This document shows positions 1-28,500 of a stretch of DNA of 38,300 nucleotides, in pieces. A program made the translations under genes and the position numbers. This stretch comes from a virus. The first letter of the stretch is position 1. Every line of letters starts with the position of its first letter. The stretch lies in UHGV virus genome UHGV-0186551; one strand, written 5' to 3'. Below the pieces are notes generated by a model. The model was not told the origin of the DNA and searched no databases. It was given only the letters and a program-made list of their open reading frames with translations.

Positions 1-14
1 TAGTATAAAAAAGC
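1..14. repeat. att core (attR copy), tagtataaaaaagc; window begins inside the core
   Basis: Identical to 37207..37220; is the reverse complement of the lambda core GCTTTTTTATACTAA (first base presumably just left of position 1). Confidence 0.85.
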
Positions 15-160
15 TGAACGTGAAACACTAAAAACCATTAATATCAATGCATTACAATAAATTTAGCTTAAAAAATAGACTATATAATACTGCAAAACGC
101 AACATATGCAGTCACTATGAATCAACTACTTAGATAGTATTAGTGACCTGTAACAGAGCA
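15..160. other. attR P-arm (Int arm-site/IHF/Xis binding region, phage side of attR)
   Basis: Sequence following the core recalls the lambda attP P-arm in reverse complement (recollection, not aligned); individual protein sites not mapped. Confidence 0.55.
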
Positions 161-201
161 TTAGCGCAAGGTGATTTTTGTCTTCTTGCGCTAATTTTTT
201 G
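161..201 (+). terminator. sib/tI-like hairpin with T-run (int retroregulation element in the free phage)
   Basis: ttagcgcaag ... cttgcgctaa inverted repeat followed by tttttt. Confidence 0.5.
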
Positions 202-290
202 TCAACATACTGGGTTATCTGAATTTACAGCCATGCTCAGTATCTCGATAAGCGCAGAGAAATGATGCAGTGGTGGGCGGACTGGCTTGA

Positions 291-314
291 TGAAAAGGTG
301 GAGTGAACCACCTT
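291..314 (-). terminator. Possible terminator hairpin downstream of the 218-aa gene
   Basis: aaggtgg/ccacctt stem with adjacent A-run on + (U-run on - transcript). Confidence 0.3.
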
Positions 315-422
315 AACCACTATCGAAGAGCACAAAACCTTGCAATCAAGTGCAAAGCTTTGTGTGTTATTTTTTATGGCTATATAAATTATATACTGCC
401 AGTGCTATCTAACATTTAAATA

Positions 423-1079
423 TTATGAACTATAATAAGTCCTAATCTTTACAGATGAAAGCATAATCTTCCAAGCTTGATCGCTACCCAACCACTCATC
501 GTTGGTTGGTTCATTATCACCAGATACTACATAAGTATCTGGCATATCAAAGTCTATATTGCAAAGGTCTTCTCCTTTGCGCTCCTTAAAAATAAGAAGA
601 TCTATTTTTGTTGTTGGGAATTTTTTATCCAAAACACTTCTCAGTTTATACACAGCATCTCGTTCTGCATTCAATCTAACGAGTAAAACACGTTCCGACT
701 CATTGATTTTCTCTATAAATCTTTTTCTTCTCGCCTTTATTTTTTTCATCATATTAAACAAGCAGACTTCAATACCTTGTTTTTCATAGTCATCAATAAG
801 AATATCGTGAATACTTCGAAATCCAGTCGCTGTATCTGTGATATCAATACAATTTTTAAATCTGCCATTAATTTTTATATTTTCAGGCAAGAAAAGGTGG
901 TCGCACCCCTTATTAATTATTTTTGTAACTTGAGGTAGTTTTTGAGAGGCAAACCAATCAAATGGTCCACTAAATGTCCTCAACCCAAATCGCTTTAACC
1001 TTCCTGCTGGTTGACATTTTTTACCAAGGCTTGCTATAAAATCATACTCTCCACAAGGAAGAAAAAGGCCTTTATTCAT
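423..1079 (-). CDS. Hypothetical protein, 218 aa; N-terminal motif SLGxxC...PFDW reminiscent of DUF1796 (putative papain-like fold); AT-rich accessory gene
   Basis: ORF track 423..1115; start moved to ATG at 1079 (MNKGLF...) which has an AGGAAA ribosome-binding site; AT-rich composition unlike the rest of the prophage. Confidence 0.7.
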   Translation of the reverse strand: MNKGLFLPCGEYDFIASLGKKCQPAGRLKRFGLRTFSGPFDWFASQKLPQVTKIINKGCDHLFLPENIKINGRFKNCIDITDTATGFRSIHDILIDDYEKQGIEVCLFNMMKKIKARRKRFIEKINESERVLLVRLNAERDAVYKLRSVLDKKFPTTKIDLLIFKERKGEDLCNIDFDMPDTYVVSGDNEPTNDEWLGSDQAWKIMLSSVKIRTYYSS

Positions 1080-1196
1080 ATGATTTTCCTTACATTTTAT
1101 GACGACAAAAATCATAACATTGCCTTATTAATCAGTCAAACAGTTAACAAATGCAAACAAACAAGTAAGCACATTGTTGATAATTTGTTTATTTTT

Positions 1197-1811
1197 ATGT
1201 TTTTGTTATCTATACCATTTTTTTCATTTGCTTCTGATACAAACAAAACGCCACCATATCGCATGAGGGAGTCGATGTTTGAGTTATTAAAGGAGCAAAG
1301 GGATATTGTTATGCTTGGCGATAGCATAACCGCGCGAGGAGAGTGGAATGAGCTTCTTCCTAGTTTATCTGTAGCAAATAGGGGCATTGGGGGAGATGAA
1401 GTTAAATTTATGAAAAGAAGGATTGATTCTATATTTTTATTAAAGCCCAAATATGTATTCATTATGGGCGGAACAAATGATTTCAGAAGAAAAAGAAGTG
1501 TTGATGATGTGGTTCGTGACTATAAGCATATAATAAAAAAACTACACAAACACAGAATTAATGTATTCATTCAGTCCACCCTTTACGTGTCAAGAGAAAG
1601 CAGGTTAAATGACAACATAAAAATATTAAAATTAAACAATGCAATAAATAACTATTGCTCTGTATCTAATTATTGTCGTTTCGTAGATCTTAACGTGCAC
1701 ATGGCAAAAGATAGAAAAATACTAGCTAAGTATAGCGATGATGGAGTCCATCTAAATGGTAATGGGTATTTAATGTGGGCGTCAATCATATACCCTTTAA
1801 TTAAAAAATAA
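1197..1811 (+). CDS. SGNH/GDSL-family hydrolase (esterase/lipase-like) with hydrophobic N-terminus, probably exported or membrane-anchored
   Basis: Motifs GDSIT, GIGGD, GGTNDF, DGVHLN in SGNH block order; N-terminal MFLLSIPFFSFA; start uncertain (ATG 1080, TTG 1185 or ATG 1197; track start 1011). Confidence 0.75.
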   Translation: MFLLSIPFFSFASDTNKTPPYRMRESMFELLKEQRDIVMLGDSITARGEWNELLPSLSVANRGIGGDEVKFMKRRIDSIFLLKPKYVFIMGGTNDFRRKRSVDDVVRDYKHIIKKLHKHRINVFIQSTLYVSRESRLNDNIKILKLNNAINNYCSVSNYCRFVDLNVHMAKDRKILAKYSDDGVHLNGNGYLMWASIIYPLIKK

Positions 1812-1817
1812 GAATAG

Positions 1818-1849
1818 TAAAAAACCATCTCATTATGAGGTGGTTTTTT
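1818..1849. terminator. Bidirectional rho-independent terminator between convergent hydrolase and tailspike genes
   Basis: Hairpin aaaaaccatctca / tgaggtggttttttt with A-run before and T-run after. Confidence 0.6.
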
Positions 1850-1930
1850 ATATAGAATAAAGCAATAGAGGTTTATTTTATTTGTTTATCATGGCTTAAT
1901 GCACTAGCACTTTAATTGAAAAAACTATAT

Positions 1931-4330
1931 TTATTTTAGTATCCATCCGGTATTTCCTGTTCCTGTTTTTTTTTGATACCAATCACCATTATAATCAATG
2001 TACATTGACCCCTTAGGTGCGGTCACAACACCCTCAGGTGAACCGGAGCCTCTATAAATTCCAAAGAGAGTTGTACCTCTTACTTTCTCGTATGCAAACA
2101 ACAAACCATCTGAAGCCCTTCTGATACGCAACGGTTCGTGCTCTGAGTCCGATGCAAATGTAGTGGTGCCGTTTGAATCTGTTTCCCTGGAAAAACTTCC
2201 ATCTGTTCTTGTTCCTTCAATGATCGAATTTGGGTAGTTTGGATCATCAGATGAATGTAACCTAATATAGGAACTATTTGATGCTGATACCCCCCTACCC
2301 CTTAAAATCAATCCCTTAAATGATGACGTAAATAGTGCCTGGATTGAGCCATAAACAGTGTTATCACTACCGTTTTGCTGATCGTATATTCTTAGTCTTG
2401 AGCTATTATCATACATAATAGCGTTGAAGTACTCACCAAGACGTTCGCTAAATGCAACAATATTAAAAGCATTGCGCCATCTAAATGATATATTTCGCCC
2501 GCTTTCTCCGGCATCTACACCTGCATTACTTGAAGCATTGGTTATGCCAGAATTAAGGTTCTGCTCATCGTTGTTACCAGTCGCTGGTCGTATAGAGTAA
2601 ATTGTCTTTTTCTCAAGAGAATAGCTACTTCCCCATCCATAATCTGTATCAGGACTCCAGTCTCCAGAATTTGCATCCTTGGTTGTTTCCACCCAATAAG
2701 AGCCATTTGATGGAGGAACACCAATTATTCCAGAAGTCTCAATAGATGATGCAGCCCATCTTCTTCCACGCCAGTTTACAATATTAGCTCCTGCCCTCCA
2801 TGTTTCTATGCAGCTTATAATTATTTCTTCGCCACGAATAGTTAAACCTTCCGGCTCGAATCTGGCTGGATTCCCAAGAGTTGGATGGTTAAGCAACCCA
2901 TCGCGCCCATATTGCGACCTTGCATCATCGATATCTAATTTTCTTAGTAAATTACCTGTTAAATCATATGTAAAGATATGATGCTTTCCAAAAGCATTAG
3001 TGCCTCCCTTAAGTATATGTATATATCTTCCATCAGACGCAATACCTTGTACAGAGTAAGCGCCTTCAGAAGGTGAGTCGCTCATTTCCCAAACAAACAT
3101 GGGGTTTGCTAATGTTTTATCTTCAAGTTTATCAATTGATATTTTATCGTATATAAATACAGTTCGTTTAGCGGCATCACTCTTTGGTGTATTAACCATT
3201 ATTAAAAGACGACCGTCAGAAGAAATGGCAATTCCTGCACGATTGTAATCTTGAAATGGGTGACCGCTACCAGTAATCCCCCATACATTATAACTTTTTA
3301 CGTCAGACTGAGTTGTTCCTGCCCCTCGCCAAGTTATTTTACTAAACCCTTTGCCTGCAGACTCCCCATCTTCACCTGAATTGGTTACACTTGATGTATA
3401 TAAATATACTTGACCATTCTCCACCATGGCAGAAAGATCAAATCCGTGCCCAAGGTTTAATTCTGGAGAATACGCAACATGGTTTACTACCCTTCCATCA
3501 TCATAAAGATTAAACTCAACAATACGAACTCTTTCTTTATCCGACCAGGTTGGCCCAACAGGCCGTTGTGTGACAAATAGTTTTTCAATGCCATTAACAC
3601 GGCAATATGCGATCCCCTGTAACGCATTTCTGGCATTAGGATAAATTTCTGTGTTTGTTTCTCCCTGAAAACCAAAAAAAGGTTCCATCATTTTTCTCTG
3701 CGCAAGTTTGTCAGTTTCAAGTAGACGAGAAACGGAAATAAGAGAGCCATTATCTGCAACAATCCTCCCAATACCTCGAGCAGAAGATACATCAACTTCG
3801 AGAGTATTTACTGCAAAATCGCCATCAGGAACAAACATTCTATAGCCTGCGTTAGAGAATGCCTCAGTAGCGTCAGTTATTCCATCACTGATAGCCCCCC
3901 AACCGCGAACATCTTTGTCATCACGCCATCGTGCAATCTGCAATTCGGGATATTTTTTAGCACCATCCGGGTCTTCTAACTGCTGCCGTAGCTGATCCGG
4001 GTCATACTTCAGCACATTAGGGAAATAGAACTGCTGAGTGCCATATGCATCATATACAGCCATAGAATGGCCTTGAACAGTTACGAATTTGGCAATCTGC
4101 CCGTTATATACCGGATATCCAGCAGCGTTAATGATGATTGGCTGCGAAACAGGAACATGAGAGCCGTCTTCGTTCTCTACATAAACCTGAATCTGGTTTT
4201 CTGGACTTACCGGGTCAGTGTCAATTTTTCCGATATAAATTTTGCCGTTGGCTACTGCTTTAAAAGAACGCGCCATAGTGAAGAGTTGCGAAGGCATACT
4301 CACTACAACATTGGCTGTAATGTCTGTCAT
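1931..4330 (-). CDS. Tailspike, 799 aa: P22-type N-terminal head-binding domain joined to a divergent receptor-binding domain
   Basis: First ~115 aa ([11 protein letters not shown]...[11 protein letters not shown]...LKYDPDQ) match P22 tailspike N-terminus from memory; remainder unrecognised. Confidence 0.9.
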
Positions 4331-23754: not shown

Positions 23755-23927
23755 TTCCTCGCACGATGTCTTAGCCACCGGATATCCCACAGGTGAGCTG
23801 TGTAATTGAAGGTTTTTACGTCAGATTCTTTTGGGATTGGCTTGCGTTTATTTCTGGAGCGTTTCGTTGGAAGGTATTTGCAGTTTTCGCAGATGATGTC
23901 GGTGAAACTTCGTCGCTGTCGCCTCAT
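23751..23927 (-). CDS. ninE: NinE
   Basis: 58 aa, [58 protein letters not shown]; start overlaps methyltransferase stop. Confidence 0.8.
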
Positions 23928-24451
23928 GCCGCCCTCCTGACGCCCTGCCCGAACGCCATCAATGCCGCTTTGGATACGGTAGTAAACATCCGTCGAGGAC
24001 TGATGAACGGTCGCCAAATCAGCAGCATGGAGCCTTTGCTGTTTCCATTCTTCTCCAGCCCTGTCGATGGTTCGATAAAATTAATCCGTCCATCAGTGAT
24101 AATGCGAACTTCGTCGACACTCTCCAGAGCCTTGCTGAACCATCCGACTGACATATCCTCTGGCACAAGCATAACTACCGTCTGTCGCTGTTGTATGCAC
24201 TGCTCAGCGGCTTTTTCCACCCACGGCCTGATATTGCTGTACGGTGGGTTATTCCAGATTGCACCGTGGCTTACCCACTCAGAATTGAGCGCGTCGTCGG
24301 CCTCAGTTAGCCAGTGAGCACACAGAGCATTTTTGTCGCTCGCTGCCGAATCCAGCCAGAATCCAAACTCAATATCCAGTGCATCAAAAAGCCAAAGCGG
24401 CGTTTGCCAGCAGTCCTTGTCGTGTGCTGGCGTATTTGATTTGATAGTCAT
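23924..24451 (-). CDS. Phage DNA N6-adenine methyltransferase
   Basis: NPPY catalytic motif (IWNNPPYSN); start ATG 24451 overlaps ninB stop by 4 nt. Confidence 0.8.
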
Positions 24452-24888
24452 GCAGCCCGATCTCCCCATCTCGCTTTCCACTCCAGAGCCAGTCTCGCTT
24501 CGTCTGACCACTTAACGCCACGCTCTGTACCGAATGCCTGTATAAGCTCTAATAGCTCCGCAAATTCGTTTACACGCATCCTGCTGGTTGACTGGCCTAT
24601 TACCACAAAGCCATTCCCGGCAAGGTTAGGAACAACATCCTGCTGCTTTAATGCTGCGGTAAACACACACTTCCAGCTTTCTGCATCCAGCCAGCGACCA
24701 TGCCATTCAACCTGACGAGAGACGTCACCTAAGCAGGCCCATAGCTTCCTGTTTTGGTCTAAGCTGCGGTTGCGTTCCTGAATGGTTACTACGATTGGTT
24801 TGGTTGGGTCTGGAAGGATTTGCTGGATAGCTTGAATGGCGTTCTGCTGATGAATGGGGCTTCTTAGTTCAAACGTTAGTTTCCTCAT
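24448..24888 (-). CDS. ninB: NinB (Orf) recombination mediator
   Basis: 146 aa, near-identical to lambda NinB as recalled (PDPTKPIVVTIQERNRSLDQNRKLWACLGDVSRQVEWHGRWLDAESWKCVF...). Confidence 0.9.
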   Translation of the reverse strand: MRKLTFELRSPIHQQNAIQAIQQILPDPTKPIVVTIQERNRSLDQNRKLWACLGDVSRQVEWHGRWLDAESWKCVFTAALKQQDVVPNLAGNGFVVIGQSTSRMRVNEFAELLELIQAFGTERGVKWSDEARLALEWKARWGDRAA

Positions 24889-25669: not shown

Positions 25670-25745
25670 GATTTACTCTCCCCCAAATAAAAAGGCCTGC
25701 GATTACCAGCAGGACTTTTATTAGCTCAGTGATGTAGATGGTCAT
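25662..25745 (-). CDS. Small hydrophobic ORF, 27 aa ([27 protein letters not shown])
   Basis: ATG overlaps helicase stop; a near-identical small ORF is recalled upstream of ninB in lambda. Confidence 0.35.
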
Positions 25746-27118
25746 ACGTCAGCCCCTTGTGCATATCGTCTGCCACGCGCAGCAGGTGCATTTGATGCTG
25801 TGCAAATCTGTCTGGCTTCATCCTGGTCACATGCAACAAAGTGTCCGTTACAGAACCGCTGGTAAACCGTACCAAGCGAGCCAAAACGGTTTTTCGTCAC
25901 GATGATTTCAGCAAATGGCGCGGCGCTACTGTTCTCGTCATATACAGCTTCCCGATAGAGCATGATGATTGAGTCTGCGTCCTGTTCAATGCTTCCTGAA
26001 TCACGCAAATCTGCGTTTGTCGGGCGTTTGTTTGGTCGCTTCTCAACATCGCGCGAAAGCTGACTCAGGGAGATAACAGGCGTTTTCAGGTCTTTCGCCA
26101 TCGCCTTAAGGCTTCCGGAGATGTGAGCAATTGCGAGGTCGTTGCGATCTGCTTTCGGCTTCTCAATCAGGCCAAGATAATCCGCCATGATGAGTGACAG
26201 GTTTGGATTTTCCTGTTTGTGCCGTTCTGCGATTGAGCGTATTTCTTCGACCGATAACCGCGAGGCATCGACTACCCATACATCCAAATCTGCAAGCTGA
26301 CTCATGCCGTTAGCAACACGCGCCCAGCCTTCGTCATCCATCGATGCAGGATTTCGCAGTACGCTAACCGACATCCTCCCGGCGTTGGCAATGCTCCGCT
26401 CTGCAATCTGCAATGCGCTCATTTCCATTGAGAAAATCAATACCCCGCGCCGGACGTCAGAACCAGGAATAACGCGGCTTGCAACGCCTTCGGCAATCTT
26501 CAGCGCCAGTTCGGTTTTCCCCATACCAGGACGAGCAGCGATTATCACCAGGTCTTCTGCGTTCATCCCTCCGGTGATGGCATCAAGTTCTTCGATTCCG
26601 GTCTTCAGGGTATCGGACTCTTCTCCGTTCCTCAGACGCCTGTCAAGCGTGTCAGTGTAGTCAGTAATGATTTCCCCTAACCGTACAGGTTTAACCTCGT
26701 CACGGGGCTTTCTGATGGCTGAAAGACGCTTTACAAGCTCATCCATCGCCTGACTCGATGCGTCGATGGTTCCGCTCTGAATTGGTTCACGCATTTCATC
26801 CATGATTTCCAGCACCAGACGGCGGTGATAGTTATCCGCGACCATTCCGGCATATCCCTTCAGGTTTGCGGCACTCGGGCAGTTTTTGCTGGTCATCAGG
26901 ATTGACGTGAAATGCTCCTCTCCGCACGCCTCGGCAACCATCAGCGCGTCGATTAGGTTTCTGTTTCGCGCCTGCTTGCGGATAACCTCGAAGGCTTTCC
27001 TGTAGAGCGGAATTGAAAACGCTTCCGGCTCCAGCGTTGCCAGAACGTCGCTGGCGGTTGGTGTTAATCCACCAATCAGCAGTCCACCGATAACGCTCGC
27101 TTCGATATCCTGTTTCAT
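25742..27118 (-). CDS. Replicative DNA helicase, DnaB family
   Basis: 458 aa; Walker A ARPGMGKT and DnaB-family motifs; start overlaps O stop by 4 nt. Confidence 0.9.
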
Positions 27119-27936
27119 GCAATCCCCCTGTCTGCAAACTTCCCTTCACGAACTCCCGTTAACGAATCTTCCCTCAGCAGGTAATCAAAATCTGCCGTCC
27201 AGCCAGTGTCGTTGTCTCCGAAGTAAAACGGCTTGGCCTGATGCACAAACGCCCTGACATACGCCCTGAAACCGTCCACGTTTGGCGTTTTCAGTTGCGG
27301 GATGATTTTCTTCAGGCGGCGTTTGCGTTTCTCGTTGACCGCAACAGCGTGTGGAAGTCTGTCACCGACTTCGGCGTTGTAGGCGTTCAGGAAGGATTCG
27401 TAGTCGATTCGTTCTGCCTTGCGACGTTCAGGTTTAACCTGCCCATCGCCGCCCCCGTTAGGGGGTAAGGGGGTATTTGTATTTATTGTCTTTTGTATAT
27501 TGTCTTTTGTGTTTAGCTGACTTGGCTTATACCCATTAGCCGACTCGGCTAATGTTTTATTAGCTGTTTTAGCTAATGTTAAGCTGTCCTGGCTAATCCA
27601 CTGCGAAACCACCTTGTTCACTCCGATTTTCACGCCATCAGCAATGAGGAATTTACGCTCGATAAGCTGGCGCTTGGCAGCGCAAACATGAGTGTGATGA
27701 ATACCTGTCATGGCTGCTATCTGCGTGTTTGTGAGTCGATCCATCGGCTTATTGAATCCGTATGTCTTGCGCATGATAGCGAGCATCACCTTCAGCTGCC
27801 GGACGGTTAAATCAGCCATCAGCAGACTGTCGGTAATCTCGTTAGCAACGCGCATGAAACCATCTTCGGTATCTGCCACGCGATGCTCCACGACCTCCAG
27901 TTGAGGCCTGTAATCAGCTAACTTAACGACGCCCAT
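27115..27936 (-). CDS. O: Replication initiator O (iteron-binding, lambda O-like)
   Basis: 273 aa; N-terminus DLT.RQ.KV.LAI.RKTYG.NKPMDR recalled from lambda O; iterons inside the gene. Confidence 0.85.
27470..27596. repeat. Replication origin: four about 17-bp palindromic iterons (consensus near TTAGCnnnnnnnGCTAA) plus adjacent AT-rich element containing a duplicated ttgtcttttgt
   Basis: Iterons at 27513..27529, 27536..27552, 27560..27576, 27579..27596; AT-rich 27470..27512; inside the O gene as in lambda. Confidence 0.75.
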
Positions 27937-28119: not shown

Positions 28120-28398
28120 TCAGGCCTCAAAACTGTTGCCGCAGTCTTGAGGCTTTTCTTTTGTCAGCACCATGGCTACTTTCTTTGCCAGCTCCGCTAA
28201 TTCCTCGTCTTCAACACCCCACTCCAGCACAGCCAGAAGCATGGCCATCTTTGGGATAAAGCTGTCTTTCCATCGCGAAATTTGCGATTCATTGATCCCT
28301 AATGCATCAGCAACCTTTCGCTGACCACGTACAGCAATTCGATTTAGGATGTTGCTTGTAATTGCATTCGCTTTCTTGCGAGTACTTGTAAGTTGCAT
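28120..28398 (-). CDS. cII: Lysogeny establishment activator CII
   Basis: SQISRWK...MLLAVLEWGV motif as in lambda CII; start moved to ATG at 28398 (track start 28485). Confidence 0.85.
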   Translation of the reverse strand: MQLTSTRKKANAITSNILNRIAVRGQRKVADALGINESQISRWKDSFIPKMAMLLAVLEWGVEDEELAELAKKVAMVLTKEKPQDCGNSFEA

Positions 28399-28457
28399 AT
28401 GTAAGTATTTACTTAACAAATAAGAAGTTATGCGCATCAACTTATGCGCGTTGTATT

Positions 28458-28500
28458 CCCGCATTTCGGCGGGAATGAGGACCATGACTGTTAAAGAGCG
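28458..28500 (-). promoter_or_regulatory. nutR (boxA cgctctttaa, boxB hairpin cccgccgaaatgcggg)
   Basis: boxA/boxB read on the - strand between cro and cII; boxB identical to the nutL copy. Confidence 0.75.

Follow-up and report, generated by a model that had tools for sequence, protein, structure and literature searches.

The analysed stretch, referred to as the window, comprises 38,300 nucleotides of UHGV virus genome UHGV-0186551 and carries, on its minus strand, an O-type replication initiator gene and a gene for a DnaB-like replicative helicase, the start of the helicase ORF overlapping the O stop codon by 4 nt. The O gene encodes 273 aa and shares ~98% nt identity with the HK97 O gene (product Gp54). 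Pfam Phage_rep_O (PF04492) covers aa 19-113 of the protein (E 6e-33), within an N-terminal DNA-binding domain of approximately aa 1-113, which is followed by a putative linker of approximately aa 114-170, encoded by the DNA of the candidate origin, and by a C-terminal domain of the HK97/P22 type. The 458-aa helicase is matched by Pfam DnaB_C (1e-77) and DnaB (4e-13) and is 90% aa identical to P22 gp12, in line with an earlier note on this DNA, which had proposed that a DnaB-type helicase stands here in place of P. This helicase is the presumed partner of the O C-terminal domain. Transcription before O runs in the order cI (plus strand), cro, cII and a 53-aa ORF, and the gene order around O is that of a lambdoid early-right operon. 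The genes and features are as follows, with CACAAAAGA denoting the box used as a reference point:

25742-27118, minus strand: DnaB-like replicative helicase gene (458 aa)
27115-27936, minus strand: O-type replication initiator gene (273-aa ORF)
27580-27596, minus strand: iteron 1 (counted along O), ttagccaggacagctta, differing from TTAGC-N7-GCTAA at one position, with its centre 77 bp upstream of the box
27560-27576, minus strand: iteron 2, ttagctaaaacagctaa, 0 mismatches, centre 57 bp from the box
27536-27552, minus strand: iteron 3, ttagccgagtcggctaa, 0 mismatches, centre 33 bp from the box
27513-27529, minus strand: iteron 4, taagccaagtcagctaa, 1 mismatch, centre 10 bp from the box, abutting the AT-rich tract
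27476-27512, minus strand: AT-rich tract of 37 bp, acacaaaagacaatatacaaaagacaataaatacaaa on the O-sense strand, with 25 A versus 4 T
27452-27475, minus strand: G/C-rich element, consisting of the palindrome CCCCC-GTTA-GGGGG (27452-27465) and a second G5 run (27469-27473)

Several neighbouring or related genes showed features of their own. The cII ORF (28120-28485, minus) counts 121 aa from its first ATG, with the Phage_CII match beginning at residue 30, and HK97 cII is 297 nt long; the true cII start is probably internal to the listed ORF. In the nin region, a 195-aa ORF (23924-24511, minus), located just downstream of a NinB-like ORF (24448-24888), contains in its translation WNNPPY, the motif of N6-adenine DNA methyltransferases. 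Finally, two long E. coli O homologues (P0006, 474 aa; P0007, 446 aa) continue beyond the O sequence into an additional Pfam domain, PF16532, which could reflect a gene fusion or a read-through call.

Followed in the O direction (minus strand), the element under study proceeds from the iterons through the AT-rich tract to the CCCCC-GTTA-GGGGG palindrome, and the whole of it lies inside the O coding sequence, as had been claimed for the iterons and the AT-rich stretch. The four iterons of ~17 bp and TTAGC...GCTAA type described in the earlier note are real: four matches to TTAGC-N7-GCTAA with at most one mismatch span 27513-27596, with a start-to-start spacing of 23, 24 and 20 bp in the order of plus-strand coordinates, i.e. 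20/24/23 in the O direction. The whole 38.3-kb window holds only six such matches, four of which are these iterons, and the pattern scan found no other iteron cluster in it. None of 300 dinucleotide shuffles of the whole window gave more than two matches per 100 bp and none of 5000 shuffles of the local 501 bp gave more than one, an effect that is very large, the statistic itself being post hoc because the pattern was derived from the same data. Within the spacer of iteron 3, position 27546 is polymorphic, being G on the O strand here and A in HK97 and most of 80 IMG/VR relatives, which corresponds to O residue E132 in the window versus K. With G, iteron 3 together with its flanking bases comprises two 10-nt arms that are fully complementary and pair around one central base.

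The adjacent A-rich tract contains the duplicated AT-rich element that had been pointed out before, with TTGTCTTTTGT on the plus strand at 27486-27496 and 27500-27510, 14 bp apart; on the O-sense strand of the tract, these are two copies of ACAAAAGACAA. GC content drops to 25% in the 40-bp interval 27480-27519, and the tract is the least stable duplex in 25742-27936, the region of both replication genes, its stability rank in the whole window being only 143-1113. As an A/T-rich, strand-asymmetric tract right after the last iteron, homologous to the AT-rich region of lambda, it is the presumed DNA-unwinding element. Duplex stability alone was rejected as an origin pointer, since a low-GC island at 1-3200 melts more readily, and so was the cumulative GC-skew minimum (~28-29 kb), which coincides with the divergent cI/cro transcription switch. 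The low-GC island (1-2000, up to ~3200) has 31-34% GC versus ~50% elsewhere and the least stable DNA in the window; it adjoins a 799-aa ORF (1931-4330, minus) in the tailspike/tail-fibre position and is likely a horizontally acquired accessory cassette.

The CCCCC-GTTA-GGGGG palindrome, absent from the earlier description, belongs to a G/C-rich element that sits where the lambda ori has its right-side inverted repeat. Its C5/G5 arms are kept in most relatives and the loops are variable. By homology, the element falls inside the annotated rep_origin of P22 (gene 18 nt 353-497), which maps onto 27452-27596 of the window. A rep_origin is annotated at the same place in ES18, over lambda-type iterons; both features carry the remark 'similar to lambda' and thus rest on homology themselves. 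Judged by the annotated P22 origin, the full element would comprise 27452-27596, refining the earlier 27470-27596.

We next compared the arrangement of the iterons among O genes, anchoring each gene on the CACAAAAGA box following the last iteron. In the window, the iteron centres lie 77/57/33/10 bp upstream of the box, equal to lambda to the base pair, so that the lambda-style architecture asserted earlier holds in detail. The same distances were found in HK97, ES18, Yersinia phage vB_YenM_21.09 and Erwinia phage vB_EhrS_49, and those of P22 (77/56/34/9), mEpX1 (78/58/34/10) and Klebsiella phage RCIP0098 (76/57/33/10, plus a fifth iteron) are within 1 bp. The iteron sequence does differ, again as noted before, the arms being TTAGC/GCTAA here versus TCCCT/AGGGA in lambda, with 10 of 40 arm positions shared. 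Comparison with other O-type initiators, a check that the earlier note had suggested, thus shows the lambda geometry retained and the arms differing by class. Relatives do not all have four iterons: in phiES15 (O gene nt 293-413) there are five of the TTAGC type, including a gap of 36 bp, and RCIP0098 (O gene nt 352-463), with an IstB/DnaC-like ATPase as partner, has five TTACC iterons. In all 17 O genes examined, which span five iteron classes and four kinds of helicase/loader partner, the last iteron is followed by an exact copy of the CACAAAAGA box, in an unchanged register; its invariance within alignments is partly by construction, because it served as the anchor, and its presence in all 17 is not. 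A co-segregation of the AT-tract sequence with helicase type was considered and rejected, the tract core being common to all partner types.

At the protein level, the iterons encode O aa 114-141 and the AT tract aa 142-154, placing the element between the N-terminal DNA-binding domain and the C-terminal domain of a Phage_rep_O-family gene. A sequence search of O against the PDB returned no match at E up to 1, and an AlphaFold2 model of O, built from a 17-sequence alignment, had a mean pLDDT of 47, too poor for a fold search. Its stretch of lowest confidence, aa 109-175, coincides with the segment encoded by the candidate origin, lending weak support to the prediction that this segment is a flexible inter-domain linker. 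Given the position in the linker-coding part of O, DNA constraints can dominate there. Still, the repeats are in frame, encode a repeated LAKxAN / LAxSAN and specify residues that are invariant in the protein alignment, as would be expected if they were a coding feature only, namely a repeated L-A-x-x-A-N peptide in a flexible O linker with the DNA repeats as a by-product.

To separate constraint on the DNA from constraint on the peptide, we turned to distant relatives, as the IMG/VR relatives of the DNA-binding domain are 99-100% identical and too similar for a conservation test. The set comprised ten O genes of the TTAGC iteron type that encode DNA-binding domains with 48-99% aa identity to that of the window. 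Invariant positions in these ten genes were distributed as follows:

Iteron arms: 34 of 40 positions
Spacers within iterons: 3 of 28
DNA between iterons: 2 of 17
38 nt downstream of the AT tract: 1 of 38
Third-codon positions of the arms: 12 of 12
Third-codon positions of the AT tract: 6 of 13
Third-codon positions of the DNA-binding domain: 11 of 112
Third-codon positions of the DNA-binding domain, codons of invariant residues only: 3 of 32

The arms therefore keep every third-codon position, with Leu always encoded by TTA and Ser always by AGC, whereas third positions vary in most of the DNA-binding-domain codons whose residues are just as conserved (Fisher p = 2e-8), and the AT tract likewise exceeds the DNA-binding domain as a whole (p = 0.0025); as the ten genes are phylogenetically related, these tests overstate independence, and the contrast between site classes within the same genes holds. 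These data show that the iteron DNA itself, beyond the protein, is under purifying selection. Moreover, every unit reads as a palindrome at the DNA level, a property that a repeated peptide has no need of, and the lambda iterons, which code for quite different peptides, have the same spacing and lie at the same distance from the AT box. A purely coding origin of the repeats is thus extremely improbable.

The distribution of iteron types among phages with different gene combinations indicated which part of O they accompany. In BTP1, the N-terminal domain and the iterons are those of P22, and the C-terminal domain is of the HK97 type. In phiES15, both the N-terminal domain and the iterons belong to the TTAGC class, and the partner is of the lambda P type. 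ES18 pairs a primase-helicase with the N-terminal domain and iterons of lambda, and mEpX1 has arms of its own, GTCTC/GAGAC, with a DnaC-like partner. In these comparisons, the iteron type goes with the O N-terminal domain and its putative recognition motif, not with the C-terminal domain or the helicase partner. The candidate motif, TGIHHTH(V/I)C (aa 77-85; TGIHHTHVC in the window), lies at the second helix of a predicted helix-turn-helix and is invariant in ten TTAGC-iteron O proteins. Ehr49, whose arms are slightly different, has IGKHLTHCS in its place, and the P22, RCIP0098, mEpX1 and lambda classes each have their own motif at this position. The natural domain swaps thereby support a division of labour in which O would bind the iterons through its N-terminal domain and the C-terminal domain would set helicase/loader specificity. 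In the chimeric O genes of BTP1 (L004 1501-2334) and JEP4 (L005 1501-2388), the parts are joined at the AT tract or at the C5/G5 element. The JEP4 protein has a quite different N-terminal domain (weak Phage_rep_O match, 7e-15), a His/Ala-rich repeat linker and an HK97-type C-terminal domain, and its repeat-rich linker may hold iterons of its own.

That the arm sequence changes as a block with the O DNA-binding domain also bears on a possible role at the RNA level, with the palindromes acting as O-mRNA hairpins in translation or stability control, or as pause or termination signals for rightward transcription. The palindromic units would fold in the transcript too, the hairpins described below having been computed for DNA. 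An RNA hairpin would not, however, require the arms to follow the DNA-binding domain, the arms show no compensatory change among the ten TTAGC-class O genes, and an Rfam scan of the whole window gave no matches, neither to an oop-like RNA nor to any other RNA family. We give such an RNA function next to no credence.

Turning to physical properties of the DNA, we carried out the curvature analysis that had been suggested for this locus. A wedge model, used as an approximate test, predicted a bend peak of 26 degrees at 27568, in iteron 2, corresponding to the 99.6th percentile of the window. In the controls, phased A-tracts gave 33 degrees and unphased ones 7 degrees, and the maximum of the lambda locus fell on iterons 1-2; an intrinsic bend at the iterons is thus predicted, within the accuracy of the model. 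When the region is folded as single-stranded DNA, iterons 2 and 3 and the C5/G5 element form hairpins, with z = -4.4 relative to shuffled sequence. This folding propensity would also suit iterons that are O-binding sites with a mainly regulatory role, be it in O autoregulation, in copy-number control and incompatibility, or as a structure sensed by host defence, with initiation needing another site. Plasmid-borne lambda iterons inhibit lambda-type phages in trans (PMC3349717), and during lambda replication, enrichment of Lamassu and OLD proteins occurs at the iterons (PMC12663957; bioRxiv 10.64898/2026.07.10.737580). In lambda, however, such roles are secondary consequences of the origin rather than alternatives to it. 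In addition, the AT tract abuts iteron 4 in the lambda register, as fits an unwinding element, and the scan described above left the window without a second iteron cluster. A mainly regulatory function therefore appears very unlikely.

Taken together, we are highly confident that 27452-27596 serves as the origin of bidirectional (theta) replication in a P22-like E. coli prophage with an HK97-type lambdoid replication module, a function that we infer from homology and from conservation at the DNA level. In the lambda model, O dimers on four palindromic iterons form an O-some on bent DNA and the adjacent A-rich tract is destabilised (PMC7466680, PMC12663957). By analogy, O binding, unwinding, helicase recruitment and origin firing would proceed as follows for the TTAGC iteron class. 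O dimers would bind the four TTAGC-N7-GCTAA iterons via the N-terminal winged-helix domain, with TGIHHTHVC as the putative recognition motif, and would build up an O-some on DNA with a pre-existing intrinsic bend. The strain of the O-some would open the adjacent A-rich tract at 27476-27512, upon which the O C-terminal domain could bring in the phage's own DnaB-like hexameric helicase, of the P22 gp12 type. After helicase loading, host primase and DNA polymerase III would be expected to take over.

The AT tract may do more than melt. The tract of P22 is identical to that of the window at 37 of 37 positions, and together with most of the C5/G5 element it forms a segment of ~55 nt without mismatch between P22 and the window or HK97-type modules, the flanks being ~73% identical or less. 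The presence of the CACAAAAGA box in 17 of 17 O genes, the third-codon conservation and this ~55-nt identity point toward sequence-specific reading of ACAAAAGACAA. We therefore put forward, as a tentative idea that we regard as possible rather than probable, that the doubled ACAAAAGACAA goes beyond a generic melting tract in being recognised sequence-specifically by something that all O-type origins have in common, either a conserved portion of O or a host factor, and that the ~55-nt segment also acts as the joint at which an N-terminal domain with its iterons is exchanged against a C-terminal domain with its helicase, as in BTP1 and JEP4.

The replication module is widespread. Among 5,426 complete E. 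coli genomes, 711 contain a match to the O/ori segment, and in 395 of these the match covers 80% or more of the segment; IMG/VR holds at least 440 relatives of the O DNA-binding domain. Outside the module, the window is similar to P22-like E. coli podoviruses and is hence a mosaic phage carrying an HK97-type replication module. The origin is of a textbook type and belongs to a replication module that is among the commonest in enterobacterial prophages; its architecture, its location in O and its combination with a DnaB-like helicase are already known from P22 and HK97. By-products of the analysis are an O-some geometry kept to the base pair across five iteron classes, a universal CACAAAAGA box, and the P22-shared AT tract/C5-G5 segment at the module-exchange joint. 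The coordinates can be transferred to HK97-type records that have no rep_origin, including many Stx-converting phages, in which replication drives toxin production. Given the fixed geometry, with only the five-base arms and a short putative recognition motif varying, these phages also offer a natural series for the study and engineering of initiator specificity. Furthermore, HK97 has been reported to be OLD-sensitive and Lamassu/OLD accumulate at the palindromic iterons of the lambda origin, making HK97-type iterons candidate triggers.

Among known systems, HK97 is the closest. The 2195-bp O and helicase segment shares 97.9% nt identity with genes O and P of HK97 (AF069529; products Gp54/Gp55), the P product Gp55 being recorded as 'similar to DnaB', and mEp213, HK544, HK446 and the Stx phages 1717, 2851 and YYZ-2008 are equally close. 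For O by itself, identity is ~99% with several Salmonella phages, and the HK97-type module is also present in Salmonella ST104. HK97 shares the four iterons, identical save for the one spacer base at 27546, as well as the AT tract and the C5/G5 palindrome, and differs by a few other substitutions; its module resides in a siphovirus, whereas the copy in the window lies in a P22-like podovirus genome. The HK97 GenBank record annotates the genes and has no rep_origin feature. One of the lambdoid DNA-replication specificities, which were predicted from sequence, is listed with HK97 as a prototype (PMC2629481, Table 1), and in open-access full text we found no description of HK97-type iterons.

P22 is similar in its gene pairing and different in its predicted origin specificity. 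Like the window, it couples an O-type initiator (gene 18) to a DnaB-like helicase (gene 12), a long-known arrangement (PMC8022706, PMC10307801); O-type initiators with a P22-like helicase have been described (PMC10307801), and P22 gp12 is described as a helicase of the DnaB type (PMC8022706, citing Wickner 1984). Four different ~20-bp repeats lie within gene 18 (PMC8022706, PMC7466680). The O C-terminal domains of P22 and the window are related and the helicase and AT tract are shared, whereas the DNA-binding domains are only about 40-43% identical and the P22 arms are TTACC/GGTAA-like.

Lambda resembles the window in having its origin in the O gene at the domain junction, with four palindromic 17-19-bp iterons at intervals of ~20-24 bp and an A-rich unwinding tract. 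The lambda O protein binds four iterons located centrally in its own gene (PMC8022706, PMC7466680), and in the lambda record these four units are annotated as O-binding iterons with a spacing of 20/24/23, as in the window. Outside the arms, the two share 14 of 17 inter-iteron, 19 of 28 spacer and 25 of 37 AT-tract positions. The O proteins, by contrast, are 41% identical only over the N-terminal 134 aa, their C-terminal domains are unrelated, and lambda uses the loader P to recruit host DnaB where the window has a phage DnaB-like helicase. The Stx phages 933W and P27 have an origin of the same family inside O, but with six iterons of lambda-type arms and a lambda P partner (PMC7466680) instead of four HK97-type iterons. 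The iteron origins of theta plasmids (Rep/RepA), as here, place an array of initiator-binding repeats beside an AT-rich unwinding element (PMC4980987). The window itself has iterons of the HK97 class. Plasmid iterons are usually non-palindromic direct repeats outside the rep gene that are bound by Rep monomers, with host DnaA and DnaB-DnaC taking part, whereas the origin of the window has palindromic iterons inside the initiator gene and is paired with a phage helicase.
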